Shown here: positions 3,053 to 48,583 of the stretch, piece by piece | Layout: the number at the start of each line of letters is the position of its first letter | How positions within the stretch are numbered: position 1 is the stretch's first letter | NCBI GenBank assembly: GCA_051294905.1 | Contig: CM119371.1 | Coordinates: 10,976,001-11,040,000 of the forward strand | Direction of reading: 5' to 3' | Length of the DNA: 64,000 bases | Source: Botryllus schlosseri | Taxonomy: Eukaryota | The notes under the pieces: model-generated | Told to the model about the DNA's origin: nothing | Database searches by the model: none | Seen by the model: the letters and a program-made list of their open reading frames with translations, nothing else | Translations under genes and position numbers: made by a program

Positions 3053-3559
3053 TTGTATACAATGGCAGCTGAGGCCAGCATAGCGGAAAAAATAAAAAAC
3101 TTCGCCCGCAAGGGCGCAGTCAAGGGCTTCCGCGAATGAATCCACCAAATTCCTTGTCGACATTTAAAGAGAATGCATCATAAGTCAATAATTTTATGTT
3201 GTGCTTGTCAGGTCTTAATAGCAATTTAATGTAATTGAAATTGTCATTGAGCAAAATTTCTGTCAAATTACAATTACAATTACACAAAATAAAAATGCTT
3301 AAATTACAATTACATTACAATTACATTGAAAAATGCAATTAACTACATTCAGCTCAATTACAAATTACATTTGATCCAACTCTGGTGCCAAAGGGGCCAC
3401 ACCCCCAAAAATTGCTCGTCAATTAACATAAGGTGGAGTATTTTTATTCAGACGTATTCAACTTGAAATTTTTCTTCGCCTTTCGCGCGATATATGGTGA
3501 CATTCGATTTTTTCAAACTACCGAGTGCCGTCCTCTTGATAAATGAAAATGATGGAATA

Positions 3560-4364: not shown

Positions 4365-4770
4365 GCATTATTATGATATTGCTGCGCACGAATAGCGAAT
4401 AGGCCTGTGTATCGACTATCGTATTCTTGGTGGTTACGTACTCAATATATGGCTACTTCAGACTTGCCTCTGACTTCTCACTAGAATTAGAAAAGGACTC
4501 ATAGCGTCATTGATATATTCGAACATCTTCCATACCAGCGGAGTATAGCGAAGTCGGCAAAATGCCGCCAGGTAATACTTAATACGTACCAATTTGTTTC
4601 AACAGAGCTGCATCACCTCAACAATATAGCTCTAACTAATGTATCCTTCTTGCGTCACAAGTTATAAGTTCACTCGCTTCAATCCGTTTACGGTCGAAAT
4701 GAGCCTCCACTTCCCGTGTGTCACAGAAGCCTCAGAGTAAATTGCCAGCATACCATCAGCGTCACTCGTC

Positions 4771-7700
4771 AGTAGTGTAATCGATCGCTGGCACATTGGT
4801 GTTTTTTGCATGGGCTCTTATGGGCGCGGTCGCACATCGTATGGAAAACTCGTGGTGGCATATCGTACTTTTTGACCCCCCTCTCGGTCGCACATCGTAA
4901 TGCGTTCTTATGGGTGCGCTCGCATGTCGTACTTTCAGGTATAGGTATCTCTCGCATATCGTATTGAAAACTCGTGTTGGCACATCGTACTTTTAGGTAT
5001 AGGCATCTCTCGCACGTCGTACTTTCGCGTATAGGCTGCGGCGATGATGTGCCTGTCATGTATTCTTACGCGATCGCTGGTGATTCACCATGTGTTCTTA
5101 TGGATGCGTCGGCATATCGTACTTTCGGGTATAGGAATCTCTCACACGGTGTTGAATATGTATCAAGTAAATAGTCATGCGAATGAACGTTTGTTAATGT
5201 GTATATCGTAAATTATTATATATGATATCGTAGTTCAGTCGCGACAAATGACCGATCGTGTTCTAACTCTTTCCTCGCTATTGATTGCTACGTAACCTGA
5301 ATATAGGCTGCGGCGGTGATTCGCCTGGCATGTCATGTATTCTTACGGGAACTGTGGTGACTCGCCATGTGTTCTTATGGGTGCGGTCGTGAATCGCCCT
5401 TTCGGTATAGACATCTCTCGCACGGTGTGGAATATGTATCAGGTATATTGATCACGTGTGTCTTATGGCGGGGGTGGCAAGCGGCTATTGTCTTATTTCA
5501 TACGATGGTGGTTGCAAGCGGCTCTTATTTCCTACGATGGAGGTCGCAAGCGTCTCTTATTTCTTACGACGGTGGTCGCAAGCGGCTCTTATTTCCTATG
5601 GCGGGGGGTCGCAAGCAGCTCTTATGTCTTATGGCGTGGCGGCATGCGGCTATTGCGTCTTATGGGTGCGGCGGCATGCTAATGTTTTCAGGTATAGGCT
5701 CCGGTCGCATGATAGCGTTATGGAGATAGGGATCGGTCGCATGCTAACGTTATGGGTATGGGCCGCGGCGATGATGTGCCTATCATGTATTCTTACGAGG
5801 TCTCTGGTGATTCGCCATGTGTTCTTATGGATGCGGTCGCATATCGTACTTTCGGGTATAGATCGCGAAGTTTGCCACAGAGCCGGCGTAGACGGTGTTT
5901 CGAATACCAACAAATTGTCACTTATTTCTATTCTAGCCGTAATCCTTTGTGAAGTTAACGCTTATTCAAAAGGTGTGGAATATTTGTAAAATCCTACGAT
6001 CACCCACAAGATAACACCTCAGACATAGTCATCTTTCACGATTTGGTGTCATAGCCATACCGATCACTCACGCGGTTAAATTTTAGTAATCAGTTTGTCA
6101 CAGAACTGGATTTCACTGGTAAGATTTAATAAATACCGACTAACAGAACCATCAGTGTGGGTAACTTGAATAGCAACAAATTGTCACTTATTTCCGACGG
6201 GGAAATTCACTAATTCGCAGTGCATTGTGCGATTTTGAAAACCAGATGTTGGCGGTTGTATTTTGACCTGTGAGACCAACTAAATACGTCCGTTTTAGAA
6301 ATTCGGAGCGCGCACTATCGTATCGATTATTCCACTAATCCATTCGGTGCTATTACATTCAGCAGTATTCAGTATTCAGCAGCGACACGAAAAACGACCA
6401 ACAAATAACCGCGCTCGTAAATTAACACTTCAAAAAGTGTAGAATAGATTGCAAATCCCGCGATCGCTGACAAGATAATGTCTCGGGCATAACCATTTTT
6501 AGTGACTTGGTGTTACAAACATACCGATCGCTCACGCGGTGAAATTTTAGTAATCAGTTTGTCACAGAACTTGATTTCGCTGGTAAGATTTAATAAATAC
6601 CGACTAACAGAACCATCAGTGTGGGTAACTTGAATAGCAACAAATTGTCACTTATTTCCGCCCTAACCCTAATCCTTTGTGAGATTACCACATACTCAAA
6701 TAGATGCGAAATAATTGTAAAATCATACAATCTTTTTAGGAATATTACTTGACTTGACCAACTTTCGGCTCTGTTTTCGATTTCCACACAGTCGCTATAA
6801 GTTTCCACGCTTCTAGAATAGGATTGACTTCAGACACGTCATAAGAATCATGGTAATAATCAATCAATGTGTCAATTTACCAACTCGAAATCTCACTCGC
6901 GCTACAAGTGAAGCTGAATTGTGTCCGAATATGATAATTTACCACCGCTCAGCGCCAAACTGACTCTGTATAACAATATTACGCATGCGCGGTATTTCAG
7001 AATGGTATAATGTCATTAGCAGCAAATATTTCACAAACTTAATCGTTTACACGAATCAAAGCTAAAGTTGAAACGACAATATCAAGGTTTGAAACCTTAC
7101 AACTCGATCAGTGATTTTTTATTCAACTGTAAAATAAGTTAATATTCTGTAAGACACAACAATTATTGCTCGGGTAATGTGACATTGAGATTACCAAATT
7201 GTATATTGAGTATACGAGATTTGAATGTTTGACTAGTGATAGACTGAAAAATATCTCGCAAGAGAATCCATGTGTTATAATGCAGGCTATCGTGATACAA
7301 ACAAATTCAATACGGAATACCTATTAACCAATTGGCCCCCAACCCGAGATTCGAGTGTTCGATCAGTGATCGATAAAAAAATATTTTCATGTATACCAAC
7401 TCTTGCGTTGTGGTGAAGGGTGTTACGATATGAGCAAAGTTTTAATAAACACCATTATCAGCACCCCGATTGAGAAAAAACTTGATTCGTATGTATGAAA
7501 AGTGTTTGATTGGGAATTTATTTATTTCTCACAATCCCGCCACTGTTTTGAGGACTGGTATTATATGATTATTAAATAATATTTCACAAACTCAAGCCAC
7601 TGTTTTTGAGGAATGGTATTATATGGTTATTAAATAATATTTCACAAACTCAACCCTAATCCTAAGACTTGAGAGAAATCACGTATTCGCTTGATGATAA

Positions 7701-8925
7701 CACGCATGCGACAAAAAACATCACCGCGATTTTGTAAACTGATCATACTAATCAGGGTATTAACCATCACGCTTCTAGAATAGGATTGACTACTAAAGGT
7801 AAATTCAGATAATCCAAAATGAAATATCTCAACTTTGACATAGTCTGAATTGAAATAGATTGACAAGAATACCTACCAACTTTCACCCACTCACATTTCG
7901 AAATTATACACACATTGATTTGAAACAAGTAATGTAACATTACAACTCTATTCCCGATCCAGCTTTCCGTTTGTCAAAGAGACATTTTAACATCTTACCA
8001 TACTCAAAAGAATTATTCACAACATTAACAAGTGTTTAAAATCTAGTTTTCACTTACTGGACTATATCACTACTACTCGCAAACTTGAATTAATTCATCC
8101 TTGTGGTATTCGTATGACCGATAATTTTTATTCAACTGTAAAAGTCGTTACTAATCTATAACACAAAGTAATCACTACTCGGAAAATCTAGTTTTCACTT
8201 ACTTGACTATATCACTACAACTCGCAAACTTGAATTAATTCATCCTGATGGTATTCGTATGACCGATAATTTTTATTCAACTGTAAAAGTCGTTATTAAT
8301 CTATAACACAAAGTAATCACTACTCTGTGCATACGACGAGATTTGAATACTCGGTCTATGATAGCAATTCGCACAAGTGAATCCAAGACATCGGGCTGTG
8401 AGAAAATCTTCACCACATTGACCTACTGCCTTATCCAACGTACTCAGAGTAAGTAGACACGATTTCAGTAATATACACAATCGTTACAACTGTAAACTTT
8501 ACTAATCAATCTCGGTCGTATTGACATATCACAGACCTGTGTTTTTTTTTATTCCTTCAGTAAAATGTAGTCGTATTAATCTGACGATAACGTGCACACA
8601 TAAGAAACATCACCGACATTTTATAATTGATCACCCGACTTAGGGTACCAATAAACATTACCGGGATTTTTATAAACTAGCCATATTACTCAATACATCT
8701 ATCAATATCAGAACGCAAAATCCAATACCGAAAGAAAAGTACTTTTTTAGTTTAATAAAAATCAAATCATTCGTCTTCATCTTGTGAATTGTCACGCACC
8801 CAACTAATATCATACCAAATAGTTATTTACAACAACCAAGACATAGAAAATTTGTTTTGGACGTTTCGATTTTATTACTGGATGTACTGATCCCTTCGCT
8901 TCATACAATCTAGATTTAAACACCG
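4771..8925 (+). repeat. Left TIR of the Maverick, 4155 bp
   Basis: Reverse complement of 17037-23380 (excluding the hAT insert). Homology stops at ...TAGATTTAAACACCG (8925). Mirrored ORFs 6590-6808/19152-19370 and 7642-7866/18094-18318 translate identically. Confidence 0.97.
5455..5665 (+). repeat. About 30-bp GC-rich minisatellite in the TIR (mirror at about 20295-20500)
   Basis: Units resembling GCAAGCGGCTCTTATTTCCTACGATGGTGGTC, repeated about 6 times. Confidence 0.85.
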
Positions 8926-11661
8926 GGCACACGGTAGGGTTAGGAAGTGTTTTGTTTAAGAGCGCGCGGGAATGTTTTTTATGCCTATACAACTAAACGA
9001 ATACCCATCGGCCTGCTTACTACATTTTAAAGATTCTCTCCACTATTGTGTATACAAGAATATACTTCTCTTAGTAAGCAATTTCTCGTGAATTCAGAAG
9101 CACTTTGACGCGTGTTAACTTCTATATTAGGTGACAGTATCATTTTCATGTCTGATAATGTTACTTGTCAAGGTGATACAAACGTAAGCTCAAACTACTT
9201 TAAAATTTAAAGTCTTACCAAATTTTATCTAAAACTGAAACTGTCGAGTACCGATAAAGTAGTCTAAAACCTAGTCACTTTTTACGTGGAGGGAGAACAT
9301 AGCGAAGTACTTGTACATTTTGCAGTACTCAAGTATAGGTTTGGCCTGCTTGCGCTATACTTAATGAAGTGATTACCTATTTACACTGCATCTACTTCGA
9401 TTTCAGAGTTTTTCGCTTTTTCCAGCAAACTATACCTTCAATACTTACTTTTCAACTAACTGTGAAATCATTACTTCTTGTACTTTAGTAGGACTTTACT
9501 GCTACAATGTACTTTTTTCAGTGGACCAGCGGTCTTGGTGAGTGTTGTCAGTTTCATCTATATCCTACGAAAAGCTACTTGAGCACTTCACGGGTTCGTA
9601 TCATCGCAAATAATATATTCTAAACATGTTTAGATAGCGAGGAGTTGTAATTATAGGTGAAAGGGACAAATTTTATCTAAAACTGAAACTGTAAAGTACC
9701 GATAAAGTGGTCTAGAGTATTTTTTATGTTTATTCAACTCAACGAATATCTTCATTTGGCCTGCTTACTACATTTTAAAGATTTTCTACGCTAGAAAAAT
9801 CGCTGTAACATGATAAGTATATTATAATTAATCTTATCAGCGCGGCATAGTACATTCGAGTAAATTCATTAAATTAGCTTATGTTTATGAAATTATTTGG
9901 TTTCTGAATTCTATCTAAAACTGAAACCGACGAGTATCGGTAAAAGGACTTATTACGTGCAGGGAGGCGATAGCGAAGTACTCGTGCATTTTGTACTACT
10001 CAAGTATAGGTTTTATCTGCTTGCGCTAAACTTAATCAAGTGATTAACTATTTACACTGCATCTACTTCTATTTCAGAGTATTCGGTTTTCAGGTAAACT
10101 ATACCTGCAATACTTTTTAACTCACTCGGAAATCATCACGTCTTGTACTTTACTAGAAATTTACTGCTACTAAATGTTGAAACGTACTGTTTTCAGCGGT
10201 CTTGATGAGTGGTGCTAGTTTCATCTATATCCTACGACGCATTTTCGCGCTGCAGAATGACTTATCGCAATAAAAATAACAAAAATACTTCGAGAATTTG
10301 CGAACTCTCACTGCGCAATATTTGAGTTTTACGAAGTAACCTTCAAAGTGAGCCTACATCTTGGATGTTATCCAAAACCACATACAATTTCGCTTCGAAC
10401 GAGGTATCCTTTAAAATAAGGTAGAAGTAGTCATTTCCGAGTAAGTAAAACGTTAGTACTCTAGGTATATTACTGTTTAATACTCTAGCTATCATGAAGT
10501 TGATGTACTCCAATATCATAAGGACTTGAGACTATGTGGTGCATCTAGGCAAAAAACCTACTTGGGTATTCTCAAGAAGTACGAGTGCTCAAGTATAAGT
10601 TTTCAAACCATTACCTTGACAAAATTTTCAGAATAGCAACTTTTGCGTAAAGTCTGTCTTGCATTTAGTTGCCGGCTCTGAAAGCAAGCAAAGTTTGTGG
10701 TATTTGCGCAACATCGAAATTTGTACACTTCACGCGGGGCCTACGATACTTATGGCCTAATATGGCACATTACACATGCTGGATATAAGAGGCCGACACT
10801 CCCAATCAGACATCACGACTGACTCAATGATTGCTTGCGATCTCACTTCTCGATACCAGACGCCTCGCCATACAAGTCTAATAAAGTATTATAACAGACA
10901 AAATTAGTTCTTTCAGATGAAACAACCCAATTAAGAGCCAAGTGACAGCGTCGCAATGTATTTAATCACCAACACACAAGAAGACAATGTAACGAGAATC
11001 CCCAACTTGGGCATGTAAAAGTATTTTACAGTATGGTAAAACGAATTCAAGCACGTGAAAATGAAATTCATTCATTTGGAACTACTCTGAAACACACACG
11101 TGGAGCTTGGCCATAGAAGTTCTGCAAGTGAAATGAATTACTGCAGTAAGCAAACTACGTCTTGCTCAACTGCCGCTTTTTAAAGTCCTTCACAGCATCT
11201 TTTCTCATATAAACGGACAACCGGTTTCAGAGTATACCCGCGTCGATCGCATCGCATCTATATCAACGGTTAACCACATGAAATAACAATATGCTCTTGT
11301 ATATCGAAATGTGTGCTTTGGAAATCGGCGGATATTGTGTGTCCTGGTGTGTGTGTCTGTGTGTGTCCCGGTTCGTGCTTTAGCCTCCCACAGAGTCAAT
11401 ATGTTGAAATTAGCAACCTCCATGACTTTGGTAACTGCTTGGTACACGGATAATGGTTGAATTTATGTCCCCGTCGCGCTAACAAATCCGGGTTACTTGT
11501 GAGTTTTCTCACACATGTTTACTATATTGTGTCACTCTTTATTGGTCAATACATATCCCACCGTTCAGTTTGAAATCGGAAACCCGAGAAAGTATTAACC
11601 GGATCCGGATATCAACTCTGAATCGACAAACCAATGAACAATATTCAAACATGTTACACCC

Positions 11662-13237
11662 CCGTGTTTCCATGAAAATAACAAGACATTACACATCCAG
11701 TATACTTCACGATTGTTCATAGATACCAAGTATTCGCGTAAAGGAGGTGTGTGACATTACATACATCATGGATAACATCATGGCCGGCACTACAAGCATC
11801 ATGGATTACAAATTCATGTTCTGAAGTCTCATACATGCACCGACTCTGTACATTCAATGTGGGGGTAGCTGACTTGGAGACAAAAAAACACACATATTTG
11901 ACCGTAACATGGTCTTAGTATGAACCGACATGCATTCGACTTGTGGAAAATGTGTCGCACACTATTTCACCGAGATTACAACCCTTTCACGGTTCACAAC
12001 TTGATATATCAACTTCACAGGGTAGTTCGGATTCTCAGGTAGACTTGAATCGTGATCCGGATCTCGGAATATAGTAAAATCGGGGTATGTAGTTTAATTA
12101 CTCACTTACTACTCTATATGTTGGTGGTGGTCATACCTGCAAACTTTTTTTGGTATGAACGTAGTGTTTCACCTTACATCAGTTGGTTCAATGTATGTAC
12201 CGGGTTGTGAAAACTGTCGCTGTTTTGACTATGTGTCACAATTAATACTAAATACGAGAATTCGTTACTCGTCGGAACGCCGCAGTCAGACATCGTTAAC
12301 AGCGATTCCGTGTATGGCAATCTTGAGTTCAATTGCGGTTTTGTGATGTTAACCAAGCGGCTGTGTTTCTGCGGTGTGAAGACTGAATTCGTGTTGTTTC
12401 CCCGCAAGAGTGCGATGTCTATTTCACACCTAGAGCAATTATAAAATGCATCTTCGAAACTTTTGGTCTAGTTCATCCGCTTGCATTTTGAAACGGACCA
12501 TCACGACAAGACTCTAACCCACCACATCCGTGGTTTCAGTTGATCATATCGAAGAATATCATGTCCATCCGTGTTACCACCCACAGATTTCGCCATCCTC
12601 ACACGGTAGTGCTAAGACACAGACAAGTGCGGTGGTGGAAATATTGAAAATGAGAAAGCAGACCTTGGTGTCATTTGATTTGGATTTTACACCCGATGAA
12701 CCCACCATTCGTACTGCGCATTGGGATGAGGATTCTATCATTGATGTCGAGGGAAAGGAGATGTACAGATTTGTTGGTGTCGTGAATATTCAACGAAAGT
12801 CGGGGTATATGGTTGTGCATGGTTCGCGTATTTGACTGTGGAGATATCGCTATATATAACGTGCTGTTCACCGTATCGATAGGACCAACGAATATCCGTG
12901 AAAGGGTTGTAATCTCGGTGAAATAGTGTGCGACACATTTTTCCACAAGTCGAATGCATGTCGGTTCATACTAAGACCATGTTACGGTCAAATATGTGTG
13001 TTTTTCTGTCGCACCTATAGGACGCCCCCTTGCCAAATCATCCACCCATTGCCGCACCTATAGCACACCCATTGCCACATCATCTGCGTTACATCATCAA
13101 GTGCCACGCCTATAGTGCCACATCATCACCGCATTGATTGCCGCATCTATATGGTGCACAGCGCCGCATCAACCAGCGCGATGTCGATTGGAAGTATACT
13201 GGATGTGTAATGTCTTGTTATTTTCATGGAAACACGG
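11662..13237. repeat. Two concentric internal inverted repeats in the Maverick core
   Basis: Perfect 47-bp pair at 11662-11708/13191-13237; about 110-bp pair at 11884-11992/12896-13005 differing by one indel. Confidence 0.93.
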
Positions 13238-13239
13238 TA

Positions 13240-14256
13240 TTTGATATGTTCCATTGTCATAATGTCCTACACCTGTGAACCAATCTTCAAGTTGCGCATT
13301 CAATGTTTAGCTCGGTAATTCCGTTATTAAAGTTGAGTATGCATAGGTACGTGCTACGCTCCCGCAAAGGTCGGTATGGAACTGCGTTAGTTTAAAAGTT
13401 GTTCAATCATGAAATGCGTAACAAAATTTGACATGGTGCATTGTCATAATGTCTTACAACTGCGTACCGAGTTTCAAGGTGGGGAGTCGATTATTAATAT
13501 GGTAATTCCGTTATTAAAGTTGACTATGTATAGGTACGTGCTACGCTACGGAAAAACAGATTTAGCCAAAAGTCTGTATAGAACTGCGTTGGTTTTAAAG
13601 GTGTTACATCATGGAATGCCTGACGAAATTTGGTATGGTGCATTGTTATTATGTCCTACAACTGCGTACCAACGTTCAAGGTGAGAATTTAATGTTTAAC
13701 ATGCTAATTCTGTTACTAAAATTGGTATCGGTATATGCTATGTTCACGAAAAACAGATATGCGTAAAAGTCGATATTCGACTGCGATAGTTTCAAAGGTG
13801 TTCCATCATTAGATGTGTGATGAAATTTAGCATGGTGCATTGCCATAATGTCCTACAACTACGTATCAAGTTTAGAGTTGGGATTCAATGTTAAGCATGG
13901 TAATTCCGTTATTAAAGTTGACTATGTATAGGTACGTTCTATACGCTCCCGCAAAACAGATGTACGCAAAAAGTCGATGTAGAGCCGCGTTAGTTTTAAA
14001 GTTGTTCCATTATGAAATGCGTGAGGAAATTTGGTATGCTACATAATCACAATGTCCTACAACTACGTACCAAGTTGCAAGGTGAGGAGTCACATATTAG
14101 CTTGGTATTTCTGTTATTAAAGCTGACTATGTATATGTATACGCTACCGAATACAGATTTAGGCAAAAGTTGCTATAGAACTGCGTTAGTTTTAAAGTTG
14201 TTCCATCATGAAATGGTTGATGAAATTTGGTATGCTGCATAATCACAATGCCCTGG
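13240..14256 (+). repeat. Tandem array of about five diverged 190-204 bp units
   Basis: Motif CATAATGTCCTACAACT recurs near 13257, 13445, 13647, 13844, 14048 and 14244. GGTAATTCCGTTATTAAAGTTGA and GAACTGCGTTAGTTTTAAA also recur. Confidence 0.9.
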
Positions 14257-17200
14257 AGCTCATTTAGATACGTTTTTAATGTAGTTTCACGTTCTAGTTG
14301 TTTTGATGTAAGGAGAAAATCATTCGATAACTCGATACAACTAGTTAACGCGCGTTGATGTAACTTTCCTCATTTGTATGCATAGCCTACGCGCAATTGG
14401 TTACCGAATTTTTCGATTAGTTTATATTCCGTATTTTATTTAAAACTGAAACTGTTAAGTACTACTTAAAGTGTTATAAAATGTGAAAAAGTGTACAAGT
14501 AGAATTATTACTATGTCATGAATAAGTAGTTTACAAATTCATACGATTTTTCTTTTTGCGTTCCGGGATAAAATGTAATTTTTCTCTCTTTTTTATTTTT
14601 TATTTTTTCAATAAAATTAGTATTCATTTTACAAAAAACGTCGTGTAAAGATAAAGTACTTGTACATTTCGTAGTGCTCAAGTATAAGTTTTTAATGTAT
14701 TAACTTGATAAAATTTTCAGAATAGAGACTTTTGCGTAAAGTCTGTCTTGCATTTAGTTGCCAGCTCTGAAAGAAAGCAAAGTTTGTGGTATTTGCGCAA
14801 CATCGAAAATCGATAAAGTAGTCTAAAACCTAGATACTTTTTACGTGGAGGGAGTACATAGCGAAGTACTTGTACATTTTGGAGTACTCAAGTATAGGTT
14901 TGGCCTGCTTGCGGTATACTTAATGAATCATTCCTGTGTCATAAACACTTGAGTAGTTGGTGCGTGTAGACAAAAACCTACTTGAGTACATAATTTTTAT
15001 TTTCCATTAAAATTTGTATTCATTTTACAAAAACGCCGTGTAAAGTTAAAGTACTTGTACATTTCGGAGTACTCAAGTATAGGTTTTGTTAGCGTATTAT
15101 ATGCTCAGTATATTATATGTCGAGAATTGTGGAGCATTTATGCGGGTCTCCGGGGTGCTCGTCATTGAGTGTCCGTGTTGGGCGATAAGTTTAATTCGCA
15201 AAATTAGTGTGTTCAAATCAGGCCTGTCGCCAATATAGTGATGTCGCATTAGCCCTAAATACACATAATAGAATATCAAGGAAAAGTATCATCTAACGTA
15301 TAATGAATGTTATTTATTTCTCGGAAGCAAGTTATTATCAAAGCATAGTGGTCAAAATTATCGTAGAGCAATACCGATTTTGCGTAAATTCCGTTATGCG
15401 TCTGACTACGTTACTAGGGATTATGTAGTTAGTTAGGAAATTAGGAGTCCTATCTTCCCAATCGGTATGGAACAACATCAAAAGCATCACAAAGCAATAT
15501 CATAACATAATAGAAAATCTGTCGATTCTAGCCAAGGTAAGTTTTGACGCAGCAATCATAAGTCGTAAAATGTGGAAACTGCAGAAACCGTAACTTGTAC
15601 ACATAAAATCAAGTTTAAAAAATATGGACGGATGATATTGGTCCTAAATACACATAATACAATATCTGAGAAAAGTATCAAGATGCGGCAATCAATGCAG
15701 CGATGATATAGCAATGGATGGATGATGTGGCACTATAGGCGTGACGCTTGATGATGTGACACAGATGACGTAGCAGATGAATGTTCCCTTATGGGATGAA
15801 AATGGGCGTGGCAATTAGGATGACGTGGCGCTCTCTGATTGGCCTGCAACAAAGTTCCTTACCCTCACTACTATTGAGGCCGTTCACACTTCCATTTGTG
15901 TGCATTGGAATCAACTTTTATCAAAATACACCAACCAAAACTCTGTCAACAAAAGGAGTTCGTGTATCACCTAAAAATAGTACATTGAACGCTCTCTCAT
16001 TCGAAATTTCATGCTGGTGACGGCATATTTTGTGATACGATTGTTGATATACAATGTTCTTTCCAATTTGCTACTACTTGCTGACGATTACCCCTGACGA
16101 GTGTCAGCCGAAAATATTCGGGTTCATTTCAATATGAATATACTATTTAATTGTAAATTGAAGTTCTGTACCTCCAAGAAGCTCTTCTGAAAAATAATTA
16201 TTTAGCGTAGTGACATTTTGTGACCAACGAATGCAAATCGATCATGATATTACATTATACGCTTTCGTCAACATAACGACTTGGCGTAGAAACACTTTCA
16301 CGTTTTTTGAATAACTGGATTCTCGAGACTTGTTACTTGTACGATGTACCGTTGGTATGCAACTATAACGACCATTTTGTATGATAGTATGTTTTAGCTG
16401 TATTGTTGCGAGGACAATCATATGATGACTCAGCACTTTTCGTTAGCAAAGTAAATTGTTTTGTGCGTTAGATTTGTGGAAAGTAAGTCGAATACATACT
16501 CTTTTGTGGAAGTAACTGTATTACTGTGATATCGTTGGTAGGTATCTCAAGCAGTCACCGTGGTTTTAATTTCGAAAGATGTCGCGATGTCGGTACAATG
16601 TTTTCTAAAAGTCAAACTCGGATGGATATGACTGTGTAGGACTTACGATAAACATTATACTCATACAACTTTGTTACAAGAACTATGATATTTCTGTAAG
16701 CACTATAGTTGTGTGTTGGATTATTTGAATATTTAGATGCGTGACCATTCGTGTAAAAAACGACATCAAAACAGTTTGCAGAGTCTAACCAATCATTTAG
16801 TTTCGTAGTGTGAGGATATCGAGTAAAGTCGACTACTTTGTGTGATGTAAATATCCTTCGTACTTTTGTAAGAGTTGTGAGGATGATCATTCGTATCCTA
16901 CAAAGTAACTAGTTGATACTACAAAATATTGAATGACCGCTAACACACTGAGTTCCTAACCCAAGATAGTGAAAATTGTTTATTGTTAGACTAACATAAT
17001 TCGTATCCAGCAAAACGATAGATACCGAAGGTTCGACGGTGTTTAAATCTAGATTGTATGAAGCGAAGGGATCAGTACATCCAGTAATAAAATCGAAACG
17101 TCCAAAACAAATTTTCTATGTCTTGGTTGTTGTAAATAACTATTTGGTATGATATTAGTTGGGTGTGTGACAATTCACAAGATGAAGACGAATGATTTGA

Positions 17201-20200
17201 TTTTTATTAAACTAAAAAAGTACTTTTCTTTCGGTATTGGACCTTGCGTTCTGATATTGATAGATGTATTGAGTAATATGGCTAGTTTATAAAAATCCCG
17301 GTAATGTTTATTGGTACCCTAAGTCGGGTGATCAATTATAAAATGTCGGTGATGTTTCTTGTGTGTGCACGTTATCGTCAGATTAATACGACTACATTTT
17401 ACTGAAGGAATAAAAAAAAACAGGTCTGTGATATGTGAATACGACCGAGATTGATTAGTAAAGTTTACAGTTGTAATGATTGTGTATATTACTGAAATCG
17501 TGTCTACTTACTCTGAGTACGTTGGATAAGGCAGTAGGTCAATGTGGTTAAGATTTTCTCACAGCCCGATGTCTTGGATTCACTTGTGCGAATTGCTATC
17601 ATAGACCGAGTATTCAAATCTCGTCGTATGCACAGAGTAGTGATTACTTTGTGTTATAGATTAGTAACGACTTTTACAGTTGAATAAAAATTATCGGTCA
17701 TACTAATACCATCAGGATGAATTAATTCAAGTTTGCGAGTTGTAGTGATATAGTCAAGTAAGTGAAAACTAGATTTTCCGAGTAGTGATTACTTTGTGTT
17801 ATAGATTAGTAACGACTTTTACAGTTGAATAAAAATTATCGGTCATACGAATACCACAAGGATGAATTAATTCAAGTTTGCGAGTTGTAGTGATATAGTC
17901 AAGTAAGTGAAAACTAGATTTTAAACACTTGTTATTGTTTTGAATAATTCTTTTGAGTATGGTAAGACGTTAAAATGTATCTTTGACAAACGGAAAGCTG
18001 GATCGGGAATAGAGTTGTAATGTTACATTACTTGTTTCAAATCAATGTGTGTATAATTTCGAAATGTGAGTGGGTGAAAGTTGGTAGGTATTCTTGTCAA
18101 TCTATTTCAATTCAGACTATGTCAAAGTTGAGATATTTCATTTTGGATTATCTGAATTTACCTTTAGTAGTCAATCCTATTCTAGAAGCGTGATGGTAAA
18201 TACCCTGATTAGTATGATCAGTTTACAAAATCGCGGTGATGTTTTTTGTCGCATGCGTGTTATCATCAAGCGAATACGTGATTTCTCTCAAGTCTTAGGA
18301 TTAGGGTTGAGTTTGTGAAATATTATTTAATAATCATATAATACCATTCCTCAAAAACAGTGGCTTGAGTTTGTGAAATATTATTTAATAATCATATAAT
18401 ACCAGTCCTCAAAACAGTGGCGGGATTGTGAGAAATAAATAAATTCCCAATCAAACACTTTTCATACATACGAATCAAGTTTTTTCTCAATCGAGGTGCT
18501 GATAATGGTGTTTATTAAAACTTTGCTCATATCGTAACACCCTTCACCACAACGCAAGAGTTGGTATACATGAAAATAATTTTTTATCGATCACTGATCG
18601 AACACTCGAATCTCGGGTTGGGGGCCAATTGGTTAATAGGTATTCCGTATTGAATTTGTTTGTATCACGATAGCCTGCATTATAACACATGGATTCTCTT
18701 GCGAGATATTTTTCAGTCTATCACTAGTCAAACATTCAAATCTCGTATACTCAATATACAATTTGGTAATCTCAATGTCACATTACCCGAGCAATAATTG
18801 TTGTGTCTTACAGAATATTAACTTATTTTACAGTTGAATAAAAAATCACTGATCGAGTTGTAAGGTTTCAAACCTTGATATTGTCGTTTCAACTTTAGCT
18901 TTGACTCGTGTAAACGATTAGGTTTGTGAAATATTTGCTGCTAATGACATTATACCATTCTGAAATACCGCGCATGCGTAATATTGTTATACAGAGTCAG
19001 TTTGGCGCTGAGCGGTGGTAAATTATCATATTCGGACACAATTCAGCTTCACTTGTAGCGCGAGTGAGATTTCGAGTTGGTAAATTGACACATTGATTGA
19101 ATATTACCATGATTCTTATGACGTGTCTAAAGTCAATCCTATTCTAGAAGCGTGGAAACTTATAGCGACTGTGTGGAAATCGAAAACAGAGCCGAAAGTT
19201 GGTCAAGTCAAGTAATATTCCTAAAAAGATTGTATGATTTTACAATTATTTCGCATCTATTTGAGTATGTGGTAATCTCACAAAGGATTAGGGTTAGGGC
19301 GGAAATAAGTGACAATTTGTTGCTATTCAAGTTACCCACACTGATGGTTCTGTTAGTCGGTATTTATTAAATCTTACCAGCGAAATCAAGTTCTGTGACA
19401 AACTGATTACTAAAATTTCACCGCGTGAGCGATCGGTATGTTTGTAACACCAAGTCACTAAAAATGGTTATGCCCGAGACATTATCTTGTCAGCGATCGC
19501 GGGATTTGCAATCTATTTTACACTTTTTGATGTGGTAATTTACGAGCGCGGTTATTTGTTGGTCGCTTTTCGTGTCGCTACTGAATACTGAATACTGCTG
19601 AATGTAATAGCACCGAATGGATTAGTGGAATAATCGATACGATAGTGCGCGCTCCGAATTTGTAAAACGGACGTATTTAGTTGGTCACACAGGTCAAAAT
19701 ACAACCGCCAACATCTGGTTTTCAAAATCGCACAATGCACTGCGGATTAGTGAATTTCCCCGTCGGAAATAAGTGACAATTTGTTGCTATTCAAGTTACC
19801 CACACTGATGGTTCTGTTAGTCGGTATTTATTAAATCTTACCAGTGAAATCCAGTTCTGTGACAAACTGATTACTAAAATTTAACCGCGTGAGTGATCGG
19901 TATGGCTATGACACCAAATCGTGAAGGATGACTATGTCTGAGGTGTTATCTTGTGGGTGATCGTAGGATTTTACAAATATTCCACACCTTTTTGAATAAG
20001 CGTTAACTTCACAAAGGATTACGGCTAGAATAGAAACAAGTGACAATTTGTTGGTATTCGAAACACCGTCTACGCCGGCTCTGTGGCAAACTTCGCGATC
20101 TATACCCGAAAGTACGATATGCGACCGCATCCATAAGAACACATGGCGAATCACCAGAGACCTCGTAAGAATACATGATAGGCACATCATCGCCGCGGCC

Positions 20201-20718
20201 TATACCCACAACGTTAGCATGCGACCGATCCCTATCTACATAACGCTATCATGCGACCGGAGCCTATACCTGAAAACATTAGCATGCCGCCGCACCCATA
20301 AGACGCAATAGCCGCATGCCGCCCCGCCATAAGACATAAGAGCCGCTTGCGACCCCCGCCATAGGAAATAAGAGCCGCTTGCGACCACCGTCGTAAGAAA
20401 TAAGAGCCGCTTGCGACCTCCATCGTAGGAAATAAGAGCCGCTTGCAACCACCATCGTATGAAATAAGACAATAGCCGCTTGCCACCCCCGCCATAAGAC
20501 ACACGTGATCAATATACCTGATACATATTCCACACCGTGCGAGAGATGTCTATACCGAAAGGGCGATTCACGACCGCACCCATAAGAACACATGGCGAGT
20601 CACCACAGTTCCCGTAAGAATACATGACATGCCAGGCGAATCACCGCCGCAGCCTATATTCAGGTTACGTAGCAATCAATAGCGAGGAAAGAGTTAGAAC
20701 ACGATCGGTCATTTGTCG

Positions 20719-22901
20719 CAGTGATGAGCGGAGTCTGCTTTTCCAGACTCCGAGTCCCTCCGACAACTTTGGTCTGTGAGGCAAAGTCCCTCCGACTCCG
20801 GGCAGCTCAATCCCAGACTCCGAGATAACCCGAAGAATCTTGTCCAGTCTCCGAAACATCCATAACGGTAGAGGTAGCTATTCAAAAACATTGTCGAAGA
20901 ATCCCAATGATAGCAACTCATAGTTCCTCTGACAGCTTCTGCTTCAAAGATGAAGCCTCCTCATCAAACTTAGGTTTCACCGTATATCTGGATGGCAAAA
21001 CGTCGTCTGCACTCACTTTGCCATGCATTTCCCCAATATCGATCAAGGCATCAGCCATCTGCTTGAGGTCCTTCCCCTCAACAGAGCTCAGTGGTCTGAT
21101 ATCATGGGATACAAAGGAGACAACACCACGGCAAAACTTCTCCTTTGATTTCTCGCTTACTTTTTTGTTGGAAGAAAGAAAGGAGCTTATCTTCAACTGC
21201 GATCCATTCTTCTTACACGCTTCGATATGTCTTCGAAGATGCGACGTACCACTTGTCAACTTTTGTAAACATTGCAATTTTGATATTTCGCAAACCCAGT
21301 ATACTGGCCATTATTATCATGCATCAGAGTGAAATCCTTCCACACATCACTCTTTTTCTGCCTCTTTGTGGGTAACCCACTTGACCACGACGGAGGAAAA
21401 CCAGTCAGTCCGAACTAACTACCACTTACATCGACGATCACATCACAGGTTTCAGTAAATTAAGTTCCGCATCGCCATGAAACAGTTGATGGAGCTGCAC
21501 TAAACAGACTTGATGCATCACTGACGCACCGATCGACGCTCCTTGGAGTTTACTAAATGACTATTGACTTCCAATTTTAAAGCTGATACATGATATCTGG
21601 AATTTGGAGTTTGAGACAGACCAGCAGCAGAAACTTGTTTGCGGTGCTGATTTTTCTTATCACATCAAAGTCATTTCTCAATCAAAACAAACATTACATG
21701 ACGCAAATTCAGAAGAGTTCTGGATGACTGATTACGTCTGTCAATATTGAAGGAAGCGTAGTTGATGCGAGTTGCGAGCAGAGCAAAGCAGACAGTTGTA
21801 GTTATTTAGTGTAGCTGTTCAGAAATTCGGAATATTTTGTTTTTACTGGGTAAGATCAGCTTACCTTAGTGATTTAGGTATTGTTGAAATCTTTGAAGCG
21901 GGCTTAGATGCTGGTATGCCCCTGTAAGCGGATCTTACTAGCGAAAATTCGTCGCAACGTCATTCAATCATTATAACACATTGTATAAGCTATTATTGTT
22001 TCAATCCAGAAACTTGCTTGTTGTATGTATATTTCTCACAGGTATAAAAGTAGTATTGATGTAACACTTATTATCGATATCTCTCACTGCAGAGTAGTAA
22101 AGTAGCAAAGTACGATGAAAGTTGCGAAAAGTTCTCACAAAAGTGGTATCGCATATTATCTCGTTTCAACTGATACCAACGTTGGGAATACATTTTCACA
22201 AAATGGACCTATTACTACGTTGAATGTCATCAGGATAATGGGATATATTCCGTTATGATCATGAACCTGCTGGAAGAATCAGGGTAGCTAAAGGATGTAC
22301 CATTGGGAAGCCGAAGCCCCGTTGTATGTTGCTGATTGTAAATGTTTCGCACAATTAATCGGGTAGCATGAAAATCAGTCACGAAACAAATACGCAAGGA
22401 GGAATGTGACTATAGAAGACTGCAATGACAGCAACATGGAAGATTCTGGAGATCTTATCTCATAATATGGTGACATTCAGCTGTGGATTCAAAGACTGCA
22501 TCTCAAGGCAGGGAGCAAATGATGCACTGCGGATGATATTGGGCGCCTTTAATTTTGTGAACTACAGACACTGCTCAACGAAAATGCCTTGCTAGATCAC
22601 TATGTTACTCTCCAGTCCCCAATTACAGTGCAGATGGCTGATTGCTATGCACTGGGCAATCATTTTTGCATGTTACCCGTCATATTACAACTTTACAAGG
22701 TGTCAACTGTCTGTGTTTTGGTTGGTAATCAATAGTGTCGTCCGGTCAGAGCTATCGAAAGATACCGGGGGCAAAACTTACAACACTCCGGTAAACTCCG
22801 GAAAAATATCTGTAGTAAACTCCGAGTCCACTCCGAGTATCACAAAATTGACAAAACTCCGCTCCGGATACACTCCGACTCCGCTCCGATGCTCATCACT
22901 G
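20719..22901 (-). mobile_element. Internally deleted hAT element (Hermes/hobo-like) inserted in the right TIR
   Basis: 11-bp TIRs CAGTGATGAGC/GCTCATCACTG; 8-bp TSD ATTTGTCG at 20711-20718 and 22902-22909. The left TIR keeps the empty site (CGACAAAT at 5242-5249). Subterminal ACTCCG repeats are present. Confidence 0.95.
20918..21310 (-). pseudogene. Truncated hAT transposase N-terminus: BED finger remnant plus Hermes-type DNA-binding domain
   Basis: CLQKLTSGTSHLRRHIEAC (BED-like) and SFVSHDIRPLSSVEG...LIDIGEMHGKVSADDVLPSRYTV (resembles the Hermes DxRPFxxVxG...LLPS segment). No catalytic domain follows. Confidence 0.85.
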
Positions 22902-24040
22902 ATTTGTCGCGACTGAACTACGATATCATATATAATAATTTACGATATACACATTAACAAACGTTCATTCGCATGACTATTTACTTGATACATATTCAAC
23001 ACCGTGTGAGAGATTCCTATACCCGAAAGTACGATATGCCGACGCATCCATAAGAACACATGGTGAATCACCAGCGATCGCGTAAGAATACATGACAGGC
23101 ACATCATCGCCGCAGCCTATACGCGAAAGTACGACGTGCGAGAGATGCCTATACCTAAAAGTACGATGTGCCAACACGAGTTTTCAATACGATATGCGAG
23201 AGATACCTATACCTGAAAGTACGACATGCGAGCGCACCCATAAGAACGCATTACGATGTGCGACCGAGAGGGGGGTCAAAAAGTACGATATGCCACCACG
23301 AGTTTTCCATACGATGTGCGACCGCGCCCATAAGAGCCCGTGCAAAAAACACCAATGTGCCAGCGATCGACTACACTACTCTCGTCAGCGGCAATTTGAA
23401 GCGTATCTCGCTGCGCCGATCACTTCATATCTGGAATACTTACAAGGGCACTTCTGTCTAATAAGGTATTTTGCAGTATTTCGCTTTTGTGACAGGTGGA
23501 TGCGATCCATATATTGCTGGAAACGGTTCGAGATTTCCTTTGATAACAGTGCAGCTATTTTGATCTATAGACATACAAACAAAGTATATTCTGAGAAAAA
23601 CTCTTTGAAAAACTACAACCGGTATAGCTTAGAAAAATAGGGATATGAACTTTAGAATGACATCAATAGACAGACACAGTTGTTGATAAGCATCTAACAG
23701 TGAACAATTTCTACCACAATTTGATCAGTTATAGCCACAAGGTAGGCACATAGTCACCTCGACTCTCGAACCATAATGATTTTACGCTTTTTAACAGCGG
23801 AAAAACGTTGAGCGGCAGTCTTATTTTATCCTTTAAAACCCAATATATTTTATGATTGCATTATCTGGGAACAGTACACTGTAAAAAATAAACCCGATTT
23901 ACCGCGAGTTGTTTGGAAGCACGGTAGCGAAACACATTGCGATAACAAAACCTTCCCGTAAGTCCATGGTAATTCAACTTACAGCCTTCCGGTAATCACA
24001 CTTTACGAGCAAAACGGTAATTTTAGAGATATCCTATACC

Positions 24041-43870: not shown

Positions 43871-46800
43871 AGGTTGCCGAACAACTAGAAAACACGTGTC
43901 GAAGGTTTGGGCGAATTGAGATGCCTGTGTTCTGTTGAGCGATGTTTGTGCAATGTACAGGCATTTCTCGCCCAGAGCCATCAGTGGTAACAGTGGTGTA
44001 TCCAGCGAGTGACATTTTGGGGTCGGAATTTCTCCCATTTCAAACCCGACACCCCATTCTTTTGAAATGTCGATTCAATGTCTGACATTCCCGATAAAAA
44101 AAATAACCTGTTTACTAGGAGAATGAAATCCAGCTCGGGACTGTTCTTAACTTTCAAAGACTTGGGAACCCCTACGTAACTTATAGGCAACTATTTTCCT
44201 GAGAATGACAGGCAGGAAATACTTTGGCGAGCTAAGTGTAAAGTTTGCCCTATAATCTGCGGTGTATTAGTTTAAATTAATTTATAACTTGAAAGTATGG
44301 AAATTACGTGGTCAACACAAGCTTCCGGGTGGATGTGTTACTATTAGGCAATTAGGAATTTAGAGATTACCATTAAAAGATGGTAAACAATAAACTTTAT
44401 TAACTCTTTTTAATCGCACCAACCCCTTGACACGGCCCTCTATCGCCCACCAAAATGCATGGGATTTTACAGCTTACTCACTATCCCTATCGGTGTGTTG
44501 GGTGGTGAAATCGTCATGTTATTTTGGTAATTTCGCTGGCAGGTTTTGTGAATTCGTCTTCTCGCAGCCTCAGCATATGACTGCATTCTTATGTCATAAT
44601 CTCGACTTAAACTAACCCATGTTACATCGACTTTAATTTGAATATAGATTACGCCAGGGATCGGCTACCCGTCGTACGCGTGCCAAAATTTGCACACAAG
44701 ATGGTTTTCATGCCACGCTAAATGATAGCAATTGCTTCGCTGCAATTAATTCAGAATCGGCATTTCAGAAGGACAGGGTTACGACTTCGTCCAACGGCAC
44801 GTACGCCACATCACACAACATACCACCATAACAAACATTCACCATTGGACAACTGATCGTGACTTATTGCGTGTAACCATTGACGGCATATACTAGTCTG
44901 TCATACAAATATCATGAATGTATGTGATATGTGCGTGCCGTTACATCCATGGAACCCTTGGGACTGACTTGAGGACCCCAGGGGGGCAGGAGCACTGGTT
45001 GAGAACAACCGGTATAGATGAATGTAATATACGTTGTTTTTACGGATGGGAATAGTCACTCTTTTCGCTAAGAATGTGGTTCTATCCCTTTAACTGCCCA
45101 GTGTCACATTTGCGGAATATGTGACAGTATGACGTCATCCGCGTAATACAAGGCCTGCAGTTAATTCGAGCGATACGAATAAGTTGTACCGGATACTGCA
45201 TAAGTGCTTTGAGTGATTAGGAAGGCAAATAAGAATATGATAGTCCTTCTAATTCTGCACGTTCTTCTGGGAGCTATTTACTGTGATGTGATATCACTGA
45301 TATGAACGATTTTGCTTTTTGGCATTGCGTACAATACCCACGCCAGAGACGTATCCAGGGGGCCAGAGGGGTCGTGCCCTTCAAAATTTGTTTCGTGATT
45401 TAACATAAGGTGGATAATTTTCAGGCAAATGTATTCAACTTCAAATTTTTCTTCGCCATCCTTGCGATATATAGTGACATTCGAATTTTTTAATTGCTGA
45501 ATATCCGCCTCTCGATAAATGAAAATGAAAGAATAGGCCTAAATAGAAATATGCATGATATACAGATTTGAATCTGACTGTATTAGTGTGTTCTGCCTAC
45601 CTATTAGGAACAATCTATCAACTGGAACAATGAAAATGGTGATTAAAATTGATTCAACCTATGTAATCCGTCGCTTTGACAACAATTTCGTCGGGGACTA
45701 GCAAAGTAAGATAAGCTTTGGCCAAAACTGACCCAAGCGTCAGGTACATTGACATTGATCAGAACGAATAAAACGGTTTTTACACTTGCTGCAGATATTA
45801 TACCTCAAGAACAATTTATGCAGCAACCATCACTCCAATAAGATTGATTTGGTTGGTTTTTATGACACAATAAACATATCAAATCACGATGGATCTCGTA
45901 CGTCTGCTAGACTTTTTATGTTTGGCAGCGAATTATTCTTTATATCAATTTTGTTGATGTCAATATTGTATCGATTGAGTACAAGCACACTTCGCTCAGT
46001 AGCTACGTCGCTTCTTTCTTTCCTAATGTTGTGCTATTGCGGACCACCGGAAAAAGTCACTAAACTGAATATTTCAATCAAAGTTTTCTTGCAAAGCAAA
46101 TATTTTTCAAATGAACAGGGCGCATGCTCATCTAGTGCTGAGTTTGTTTTCATGATACCAGAGCCACGCAGCTCGTGGTCTGAAACTGAAATAAAATGAA
46201 TTTCGACCACAGATGGTATAATAACGGGAAAATTTTATTTTGTAAAAAAGTTCACATTGTAGAGCTTACCAAGGTTCGTTTTCGAACGCGAACCTCGAAA
46301 TTTCCGAGGTTCGCACGCAGAACACAAACGTGAACTCAACGTTCGCACAATGTCTAGTATATATAACCATATTGCTGCGTGTCATGAATAGTGAATACGT
46401 GTAACAACTACGGCATTCTTGGTGGTATCGTACTTAATATATGCTGAATATGGCTACTTCAAACATGCTTCACTTCTCACTAAGATTAGAAATAGACTAC
46501 TAGCGTCATTGATACATTACAACATCTTCCATACCAGCGAAGCATAGCGATGTCGGAAAAATGTAGGCAATTAATTCTTAAGGCGTAGCTGCAACACCTG
46601 AACAATAACTCTAACTAATGCATCTTTTTTTTGCATCACAAGTTATAAGTTCACTCGCTTCAATCATTTACGGTTGAAATTGACCGCCACTTCCCGTGTG
46701 TCACAAACGCCTCACAGTAAATTGTTATCATGTCTTTTTGCGGCATTTGTCAGCGGCAATTACAAGCATTTCTCGTTACGCGGATCACTTCATATCTGGA

Positions 46801-48583
46801 ATACTCAAAAGGATATTTTAAAGATATTTTACAGTTTTTCGCGTTTGTGATGCGATCCATATATTGCTGGTAAGGCACAAGAAATTATTTCATAATATTG
46901 CACCTATTTTGATCTGAAGAGCTTCTTAGAGGTACAGAACTTCAATATACAATTGAATAGTATATTCATATTGAAAATAACCCGAATATTTTTGGCTGAC
47001 AGTCGTCAGGGGTAATCGTCAGCAACTAGTAGAGAATTGGAAAGAACATTGTATATCAACAATCGTATCACACACAAAGTATATTTTGAGAATAACGCGT
47101 TCTAAAACTACAACCGGTATAGCTTGCAAAAATAAGGATATCAACTTTAGCATGACATCAATAGCCACAGTCGTTGATAAGCATGAAACAGTGAACAATT
47201 TCTACCCCAATTTCATCATGTATAGCCACCAGGTAGGCACATAGTCACCTCGACTCTCGAACCATTATGATTTATCGCTTTTTAGCAGCGGAAAAGCATT
47301 GAGCAGCAGTCTTTTTTATCCTTTAAAATCAGCGATATTGTATGATTGCATTACCTGGAAACAGTCCACTGTGAAAAAATAACTCCGATTTACCGCGAAT
47401 TGTTTGAAAACACGGTAGCGTGACACTTCGCGATAACAAATCTTCTCGTCAGTAAATGGCAAATCAGCCTTCCGATAATCAAACTTTACGAGCAAAACTG
47501 TAATTTTACAGATTTCCCATCTCTGGTAGATTCAACTTACATTTCCCCGTACATTTGCGACCGAGACTGTAAATTATCCACTTACTGGGAAGGTCTGCAA
47601 GCTGTCTATGTATTTCATGATCACCCCTCTGCTTGTAAATTAATGGACGCCAGTATTATTTTTATTAGAAGGCATGAAACATCATCACAAAGATACAATA
47701 CCATTAAGCCTGAAAATGATACCAATCAATCACTCTGCTAAATGCTGTGTCCACCATTGCAAACTATAAGCTTTCCGATTGATCTCTATCCGTTCCGATT
47801 GTTTCTCTTCGTCCTTGTTCCTCAGCCAATGTAAGTATAGTACCTTGCAGTTCTACTAAAAAATAATTCACGCATTATTCGCTAACTTGTAAATGAAATT
47901 ATACAGACTAAGACAGGGGCGGACAACCCATGACCCACGGACCAAATGTGGCCCACGGAATGGTCTACTGTGGCCCGCGAGATAATCCTCGAATTTAGTT
48001 ATACCAGCAAGAAAATTTATTACCCAGGTAAAATTGCAAGGCCAACCAAAATTTGATTACCCCGACCGCGAAATTTGGAGTGTTGATGACTAAAATATCA
48101 GTTACGACGAATTGTCGTATAGCCAGGGGTCCGCCACATTTTTCGTAGATCTTCGTATATGACCATAAAGCAGAATATATTGTGGCAGATTCATTTGACT
48201 TGAAATTTTTCTTAGCTCTTCGCGCGATTTACTGCCACTCATAGCATTTGGTAGTGAAGCCCCCTCCTGAAAATTTAAATTACGCTTAATTTACAGAATT
48301 GAATCTAACCATTTGCAATTGGGAGAGAACGTGTTGTCTAACATACGATATCGCATCTACGCTCACGGTGAGATCGTCGTCGATGAAACCTTTGTACAAA
48401 ATGATAGACGCATGTTCGGCGAAATCTCCGATACTGAAATGTCTAAGCGGCAAATAATCATGTTATTGCCAAATGAGCCCAGTTGTATACAGATGCGACT
48501 CGTAATATATACAAGTAACAATATTATTCATCAAATTTATTCATTAACTGATAATAAATTCCGTGCTTCTCGAGGCCAGGACA

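Follow-up and report, generated by a model that had tools for sequence, protein, structure and literature searches.

A probable gene-less Maverick/Polinton derivative with 4.15-kb terminal inverted repeats in Botryllus schlosseri

Structure of the locus

We analyzed a window of 64,000 nucleotides from Botryllus schlosseri (GenBank assembly GCA_051294905.1, contig CM119371.1, positions 10,976,001 to 11,040,000 of the forward strand), and all coordinates given here refer to this window. Positions 4771-23380 were occupied by a single inserted unit, 18,610 bp long as it stands, which was probably a Maverick/Polinton derivative that lacked genes and autonomy and had been integrated in trans. It consisted of two very long terminal inverted repeats (TIRs, also called arms below) around a non-coding core, lay between two copies of a target-site duplication (TSD), and carried a nested hAT element in its right arm. 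The main parts of the locus, with the evidence for each of them, were the following.

4765..4770, unstranded: left TSD copy, CTCGTC (junction reading; the hexamer position is single in the paralogous empty site)
4771..8925, plus strand: left TIR, 4,155 bp (inverted-repeat search, BLASTN, MAFFT; no Pfam match in 50 frames of at least 40 amino acids)
4771..5971, plus strand: outer arm, G+C-rich (46-49%) and CpG-rich, with iterated motifs (repeat comparison, composition, motif scan)
8926..17036, unstranded: asymmetric non-coding core, a repeat mosaic of 8,111 bp (repeat comparison; no Pfam match; open reading frame of chance length)
17037..20718, minus strand: inner part of the right TIR, partner of 5249-8925 (inverted-repeat search, BLASTN, MAFFT)
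20719..22901, unstranded: nested non-autonomous hAT, 2,183 bp, in the right arm only (own TIR and TSD; PF10683 match)
22910..23380, minus strand: outer part of the right TIR, terminating in ...CACTACT (inverted-repeat search, BLASTN, end motif)
23381..23386, unstranded: right TSD copy, CTCGTC (junction reading; paralogous empty site)
46650..46830, plus strand: paralogous empty site, with the flanks contiguous around a single TTTGTC (alignment of the flanks to the paralogue)

The nested hAT had an 11-bp TIR, CAGTGATGAGC, and an 8-bp TSD, ATTTGTCG, at 20711-20718 and 22902-22909. Its frame 20921-21310 on the minus strand (130 amino acids) retained a remnant of PF10683, the Hermes DNA-binding domain (E 9.4e-7), and matched only generic zf-BED clusters in the protein atlas. 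This insertion explained the gap between the observed length of 18.6 kb and an element length of 16.4 kb. Namely, once the hAT and one copy of its TSD were taken out, the element measured 16,419 bp, of which the core took up 8,111 bp and the two arms 4,155 and 4,153 bp. This agreed with the 16.4-kb size claimed in a preliminary description of the locus. Judging from the sequence, the hAT landed in one arm later than the arms were formed.

Ends, target-site duplication and empty site

The left junction read ...CTCGTC/AGTAGTGTAATCGATCGCTGG, the left arm beginning with AGTAGTGTAATCGATCGCTGG, and the right junction read ...CCAGCGATCGACTACACTACT/CTCGTC. The right end, ...CACTACT, was the reverse complement of AGTAGTGTAGTCGATCGCTGG, a 21-mer that had no other occurrence in the window when up to 3 mismatches were tolerated. 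Thus, the element terminated in AGTAGT on the left and ACTACT on the right, with a perfect CTCGTC abutting both outer edges. Both of these features had been claimed in the preliminary description, and both could be read directly at the junctions.

The flanks belonged to an older dispersed repeat, a second copy of which was present in the same window at 45746-47520 with 76-84% identity. The left flank 3771-4744 matched 45746-46724 (78% identity), while 23384-23566 and 23575-24037 on the right matched 46749-46915 (76%) and 47070-47520 (84%). The repeat family therefore had two copies in the window: one, formed by 3771-4770 and 23381-24037, was the insertion target, and the other represented the empty site. 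In the paralogue, at about 46724-46749, the hexamer position occurred once only, as TTTGTC. The paralogue read ...GCGGCA TTTGTC AGCGGCAATT..., and the element locus read ...GCGTCA CTCGTC [element] CTCGTC AGCGGCAATT.... Since the hexamer was single in the paralogue, the CTCGTC repeat was a true TSD and the whole unit was inserted at once, which bore out the earlier claim of a genuine insertion. The predicted empty site, i.e., the locus before the insertion, would read ...CACTCGTCAGCGG....

The sequence also supported an insertion that was young in relative terms, because the arms were about 1% apart while the paralogues of the host repeat were about 22% apart. In this relative sense the recent integration proposed in the preliminary description held.

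The right flank ran CTCGTC-AG and the element also started with AG, which made an 8-bp TSD, CTCGTCAG, formally possible, but only with asymmetric ends. The unit could then be a hAT-like element with a left end of TAGTG..., in which 8 identical bases would flank a slightly shorter element. The YARNG pattern is typical of hAT ends, and hAT elements were active in this genome. However, the ends of such an element would not be symmetric (a left TAGTG... paired with a right ...CACTACT, with 2 bases over), and hAT elements are not known for kilobase TIRs. In the empty paralogue, too, the hexamer was followed by AG, there as part of the normal flank, and the match of these two bases to the start of the element was regarded as a 1-in-16 coincidence. 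Besides, no hAT domain was found by Pfam in the left arm and core, the nested hAT being the only one. We gave this explanation only a slight chance.

Terminal inverted repeats

An inverted-repeat search over 3500-25000 returned one dominant pair, 4771-8925 against 17037-20719 plus 22895-23380, with a gap of 2.2 kb between the two right-hand parts. The right arm totaled 4,153 bp (17037-20718 plus 22910-23380). In the BLASTN comparison, the arms were 98.83% identical over 3,686 nt and 99.58% identical over 479 nt, and their MAFFT alignment contained 41 mismatches in about 4,150 positions (23 transitions and 18 transversions), evenly spread, together with 3 small indels of 1, 1 and 2 bp. Identity ended abruptly at both arm/core borders (8925/8926 and 17036/17037). 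The TIRs accounted for 50.6% of the 16,419 bp, so the near-identical repeats described earlier as about half of the element were recovered as such. A composite of two smaller elements was ruled out, since the inner arm ended without a terminal motif.

The outer arm was rich in iterated motifs. The 26-mer TCGCAYRTCGTACTTTYRGGTATAGG had five inward-pointing copies in the left arm (4920, 4978, 5010, 5110 and 5837) with at most 2 mismatches. The whole window contained 10 matches to it, 5 per arm and all in the same orientation relative to the end, and 100 shuffles produced none. Shorter versions of TCGCAYRTCGTACTTTYRGGTATAGG were located at 4831 and 4889, and tandem units of 32/64 bp occupied 5491-5651. 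The iterated motifs of the outer arm were candidate protein-binding sites. The inner arm contained duplications of 58 bp and 145 bp.

Coding capacity

Stop-to-stop frames of at least 40 amino acids were searched against Pfam with an E limit of 0.05, and the region 4701-17100 represented the left arm and core. Among the 140 frames of this region, no match reached a family cut-off, and the 4 weak matches (E 0.023-0.049) were to unrelated families. Namely, no polymerase, integrase, protease, ATPase or capsid family was found among the matches of these frames, with the caveat that Maverick capsid proteins may be poorly modelled in Pfam. In the region 20651-23700, which covers the end of the right arm and the nested hAT, 43 frames gave the hAT domain only, besides weak matches to unrelated families below cut-off. 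Thus, the preliminary description of the element as gene-less agreed with the absence of Maverick domains in both sets of frames.

The longest open reading frame of the core had 101 amino acids from a GTG start (105 from stop to stop), the same length as had been claimed before. A frame of this length was equalled or exceeded in 159 of 300 shuffles and was therefore at chance level. Four relatives of 90-91 amino acids, predicted on contigs of about 1 kb, were 68-80% identical to it and had no Pfam domain. We set this frame aside as a gene and read its short, domain-less relatives as other copies of a repeat. The arm frame 5411-5986, with 192 amino acids from stop to stop, was longer than expected by chance (0 of 300 shuffles). 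It overlay the 32/64-bp tandem units, which lack stop triplets, and all three forward frames were open there. It had no Pfam match and no relatives among 627 candidates in a large protein collection. The stop-free tandem units, together with these two negative results, ruled it out as a gene. Scans of the whole window with Rfam and for tRNAs found nothing.

The element already lacked genes when it was inserted, because arms that are 99% alike leave too little time for genes to erode past recognition. This bears on another explanation, that the unit was an ordinary dead autonomous Maverick with decayed genes. Its length was that of a full Maverick, and 96% of the Maverick loci in a vertebrate survey were reported as degraded (PMC8097293). 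However, the identity of the arms was incompatible with genes eroded beyond Pfam detection. Moreover, none of the 140 frames had a relevant match, the frames of the core were of chance length, and much of the core consisted of tandem and dispersed repeats. On this sequence evidence a decayed autonomous Maverick was very unlikely, with next to no chance of being correct.

Public read evidence

Contigs of the DNA runs X1 and X5 (both organism A) and X14 (organism D) were placed on 3001-17036 at a likeness of at least 85%. This region comprised the left flank, the left arm and the core; the second arm and the joint of the empty site (4770 to 23381) lay outside it. Altogether 223,366 contigs of X1, 44,391 of X5 and 1,121 of X14 were placed, and all 30 bins were covered in the three DNA runs. 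These data indicated repetition throughout the arm and the core in the sampled genomes, to very unequal degrees. Thus, dispersed repeats made up much of the element as a mosaic. In the arm, the segment at about 7000-7500 was repeated least. For 7024-7456, X5 contained identical or near-identical contigs at a depth of 633-709 and diverged single pieces at a depth of 53-82, which suggested on the order of ten copies of this segment. The same arm segments had a depth of 6-7 in organism D, with 1-3% difference.

The listed single-letter differences within 4771-8925 (17, with 885 further rows beyond the listing) were informative about the descent of the arms. Six of them fell at arm-to-arm mismatches (5553, 6442, 6859, 8074, 8601 and 8796), and at these positions the contigs bore the letter of the right arm. 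At the other 11 of the 17, a letter common to both arms was missing from the bulk of the contigs. At several arm positions (e.g., 7369, 7662 and 8499) no X5 contig carried the letter of this copy; the individual sampled might lack the insertion, but contigs are evidence of presence and not of absence. The listed differences thus showed that the two arms go back to a single sequence and have no closer relative than each other, with about 1% drift since.

Several contig joints (4981 to 6528, 5036 to 6201 and 5209 to 5786 in X5 and X14, as well as 10586 to 13245) revealed relatives with a different build. The first three of them pointed to relatives with a differently built outer arm and could fit a one-off history, in which a shorter element with Maverick ends came first and a later local inverted duplication or gene conversion extended its arms to 4.15 kb. 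In agreement with this possibility, no second copy with the 8925 and 17037 junctions was present among the read contigs listed. However, the divergence of the outer 479 bp (2 mismatches) was not significantly different from that of the remaining 3,686 bp (39 mismatches). A variant of this explanation, an assembly artefact, was opposed by the 41 differences between the arms, the hAT present in one arm only, the unique asymmetric core, and the flanks being joined in the paralogue. We assigned a low probability to the one-off history, including this variant.

In a search of sequence runs, parts of 3800-9800 were carried by organism A (12 studies) and by organisms B-E. The runs X11, X13, X14 and X15 of organisms B-E contained roughly one quarter of the words sampled from 3800-9800. 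Either very close kinship with the host or a recent sharing of these repeats would explain this. Contigs of organism D showed no difference from the core segments 10918-11242 and 11347-11625.

No RNA run was among those listed in that search. Raw reads of the RNA run X23 (about 6% of the run) were compared at a likeness of at least 85%. The 3001-17036 stretch received 4,561 reads, 98% of which continued into unlike sequence, and the arm bins had a depth of 0-3.3. Only 15637-16572, a high-copy unit, was well covered (114-126), which had no firm bearing on the expression of this copy.

Relationship to Mavericks and other elements

The commonest end motif of vertebrate Mavericks was reported to be 5'-(AGT)2//(ACT)2-3', and the search for these elements combined it with a perfect 6-bp TSD (Barreat and Katzourakis 2021, PMC8097293). 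The element carried exactly these bases at its two ends, the motif being one that was defined on vertebrate elements (PMC8097293), and the 6 bp of CTCGTC corresponded to the TSD length given for Mavericks/Polintons (PMC8097293, PMC3014272). The combination of ends and TSD that the preliminary description took for an established signature therefore has a counterpart in the published account (PMC8097293). Mavericks in general were described as 13-25 kb long with TIRs of 100-1,500 bp and a TSD of 5-8 bp (PMC10748475), and intact vertebrate Mavericks as 12,723-24,620 bp long (mean 16,862) with TIRs of 46-1,447 bp (mean 402) (PMC8097293). The 16,419 bp of the element were within the range of 13-25 kb, whereas its TIRs were about 2.8 times as long as the upper value of the published ranges. 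The usual TIR length stated in the preliminary description was in agreement with both of these ranges but did not take in the TIRs of about 2 kb that are reported in butterfly polintons.

In comparison to autonomous Mavericks/Polintons (polintoviruses), the element had the same ends, a perfect 6-bp TSD, TIRs, and a length near the vertebrate mean of 16,862 bp. It differed from them in its TIRs of 4,155 bp and in lacking the genes for the protein-primed DNA polymerase B (pPolB), the rve integrase, the ATPase, the protease and the capsid proteins. The set expected of a Maverick (protein-primed PolB and rve integrase, usually with an ATPase, a protease, and major and minor capsid proteins) was absent. 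Therefore, the element was not an autonomous member of the group and could belong to it only as a non-autonomous derivative.

Non-autonomous Polinton families have been named in Repbase, e.g., Polinton-1N1_DR (PMC9341505), and a capsid protein has been attributed to one of this kind, Polinton-N1A_NV (PMC11296320). Compared by name only, the element fell into the same category as the Repbase families, with Polinton ends and an incomplete gene set. In contrast to Polinton-N1A_NV and its capsid protein (PMC11296320), it encoded nothing. In a survey of Anolis, non-autonomous Polintons were apparently absent (PMC3014272). Our literature search found terms for non-autonomous Polintons to be rare, and none of the accounts retrieved described such an element.

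A further literature search yielded only one pairing of kilobase TIRs with Polintons, namely the butterfly polintons, whose TIRs of about 2 kb bear the hexon and adenain genes, as reported in a preprint (bioRxiv 10.1101/2025.02.07.637071). Both have TIRs far above the usual length, and the butterfly elements show that Maverick ends can expand when inner sequence is copied to the other end. The butterfly elements are autonomous with gene-bearing TIRs, whereas the TIRs described here were twice as long and non-coding. Thus, the novelty of the element is that it is full-length and wholly non-coding with 4-kb TIRs; non-autonomous Polintons as such were already known.

Very long inverted arms that are built of iterated subterminal motifs and of tandem units, and that enclose a non-coding middle, are also the classic anatomy of foldback elements, such as Drosophila FB and sea-urchin TU. 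The element shared all of these traits, and no Maverick gene linked it to Mavericks. It might thus be a foldback-type or unclassified TIR element of another superfamily, which starts with AGTAGT by chance, generates a 6-bp TSD, and was cut and pasted by an unknown DDE transposase. However, foldback transposons have a TSD of 8-9 bp and other termini, and the TSD of Foldback/MuDR-type elements is 9 bp, whereas our element had a 6-bp TSD and AGTAGT ends. Under this explanation, the exact 6-base Maverick end motif (about 1 in 4,096 by itself) combined with a TSD of exactly 6 bp would be a coincidence. We considered a foldback-type origin unlikely, although it deserves to be kept in mind. Among other elements with a 6-bp TSD, Ginger2 inserts at AT-rich RTATAY targets and has TGTNR ends (PMC2836005). 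A Ginger2/TDD identity was ruled out, because the ends here were AGTAG and the target was CTCGTC.

A number of observations weighed against the assignment to Mavericks. No Maverick gene or remnant was present in or beside the element, and the assignment was made from six terminal bases, the length of the TSD and the size. The end motif was defined on vertebrates, while a CpG ratio of 1.07 pointed to a host that was probably not a vertebrate, which slightly weakened the use of the motif. The 4.15-kb TIRs were well beyond the reported ranges. Neither the terminal words (24-mer and 21-mer) nor the subterminal 26-mer matched anything in collections of viral and metagenome contigs. With respect to the read data, summed contig depths are not the same as copy numbers, and the high depth in most bins may come from unrelated nested repeats and not from sister copies. 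Also, among the contigs listed, none crossed 4770/4771, 8925/8926 or any other insertion or arm/core junction. Having weighed these points, we consider the family assignment and the non-autonomy well grounded, and a gene-less Maverick/Polinton derivative integrated in trans is the reading that we hold to be probable.

Proposed mechanism and significance

Mavericks are regarded as integrated viruses whose replication relies on a protein-primed polymerase of their own. To our knowledge, almost nothing is known about the DNA signals that are sufficient for their replication, integration and possible packaging. If the assignment is true, an element that kept the canonical ends, lost all genes and was inserted cleanly would mean that the ends suffice for integration in trans. 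In that case an autonomous Maverick elsewhere in the genome would have supplied the rve (retrovirus-like) integrase that recognised the ends and inserted the element. The five inward subterminal copies of TCGCAYRTCGTACTTTYRGGTATAGG in each arm may help this recognition, and the arms would mark where the cis-acting signals should lie, including this repeated 26-base motif.

The protein-primed polymerase of the helper would copy a linear form of the element, starting at the repeated AGT ends. In other protein-primed replicons, a terminal trinucleotide repeat lets the synthesis start inside the template and then slide back. The giant TIRs could have arisen if the sequence of one end region was copied to the opposite end, via a panhandle or template switch in strand-displacement replication; recombination between two molecules would be an alternative origin. 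In defective adenovirus genomes, a lost end is rebuilt by copying the other end through panhandles, which results in long inverted terminal repeats. Likewise, gutless adenovirus vectors are gene-less genomes that are replicated and packaged with a helper if their ends and a near-normal length are kept. Such genomes are linear, protein-primed replicons with repeated trinucleotide ends and long inverted terminal duplications, and the full Maverick length and giant inverted ends of our element resemble them. In contrast, they are extrachromosomal in infected cells, and our element is an integrated chromosomal copy known from its sequence alone.

By analogy, the Maverick-like total length may reflect a size limit of packaging, a hint that comes from a single copy. 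It is conceivable, but we would regard it as rather improbable, that the element was a 'satellite genome' of a Maverick virus, gene-less but conserved in length, in which only the end signals were kept, repeats padded the molecule to capsid size, and a helper provided replication and packaging. Such a genome could possibly spread between cells or individuals, much like a helper-dependent adenovirus genome, and the 4-kb inverted ends would then be a relic of ends being repaired during protein-primed replication. With its full Maverick length and giant inverted ends, the element is a natural case on which linear replication of Mavericks, and a capsid limit on their size, can be tested. Another possibility is that read-through transcripts of the 4-kb arms would form long double-stranded RNA and supply a small-RNA pathway that silences Mavericks sharing these ends.

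Repeats of the core and other features of the window

The repeat units of the core were the following.

9221-10237 and about 14400-15100, unstranded: units of about 680 bp (repeat comparison)
11662-13237, unstranded: inner inverted-repeat unit (repeat comparison)
13239-14254, unstranded: 197-bp tandem array, 4.4-5 units (repeat comparison)
16031-16196, unstranded: very high-copy unit of about 160 bp (repeat comparison; read-contig depth)

The segments 9221-10237, 14400-15100 and 13239-14254 were satellite-like, and read-contig joints that go back by 670-682 indicated tandem arrays of about 680 bp elsewhere. Hidden palindromy of the core was ruled out, since its halves shared direct and not inverted repeats. 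The arms of the unit 11662-13237 were formed by 11662-11708 with 13191-13237 (47 nt, 100% identity) and by 11879-11992 with 12896-13010 (115 nt, 98%). This unit surrounded the 105-amino-acid frame of the core and may be a nested element.

The bins of the unit of about 160 bp had by far the highest contig depth in the three DNA runs, and no other bins were well covered in the RNA run. The unit recurred at 46905-47072 with 92% identity, where it was an insertion in the paralogous host repeat. It probably represented a family similar to short interspersed elements (SINEs) or miniature inverted-repeat transposable elements (MITEs).

The whole window had a CpG observed/expected ratio of 1.07 and a G+C content of about 40%, and contained no long open reading frames or recognised genes in its 64 kb. 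It is thus a gene-poor, repeat-rich region of a genome without CpG depletion. Another hAT remnant, unrelated to the element, was located at 2-568 on the plus strand and matched the C-terminus of the transposase (PF05699 dimerisation domain, E 9.3e-5). Finally, 43228-43488 on the minus strand had a weak match to a SUEL-type lectin domain (PF02140, E 8.5e-4, below cut-off), which may be an exon or a chance match.

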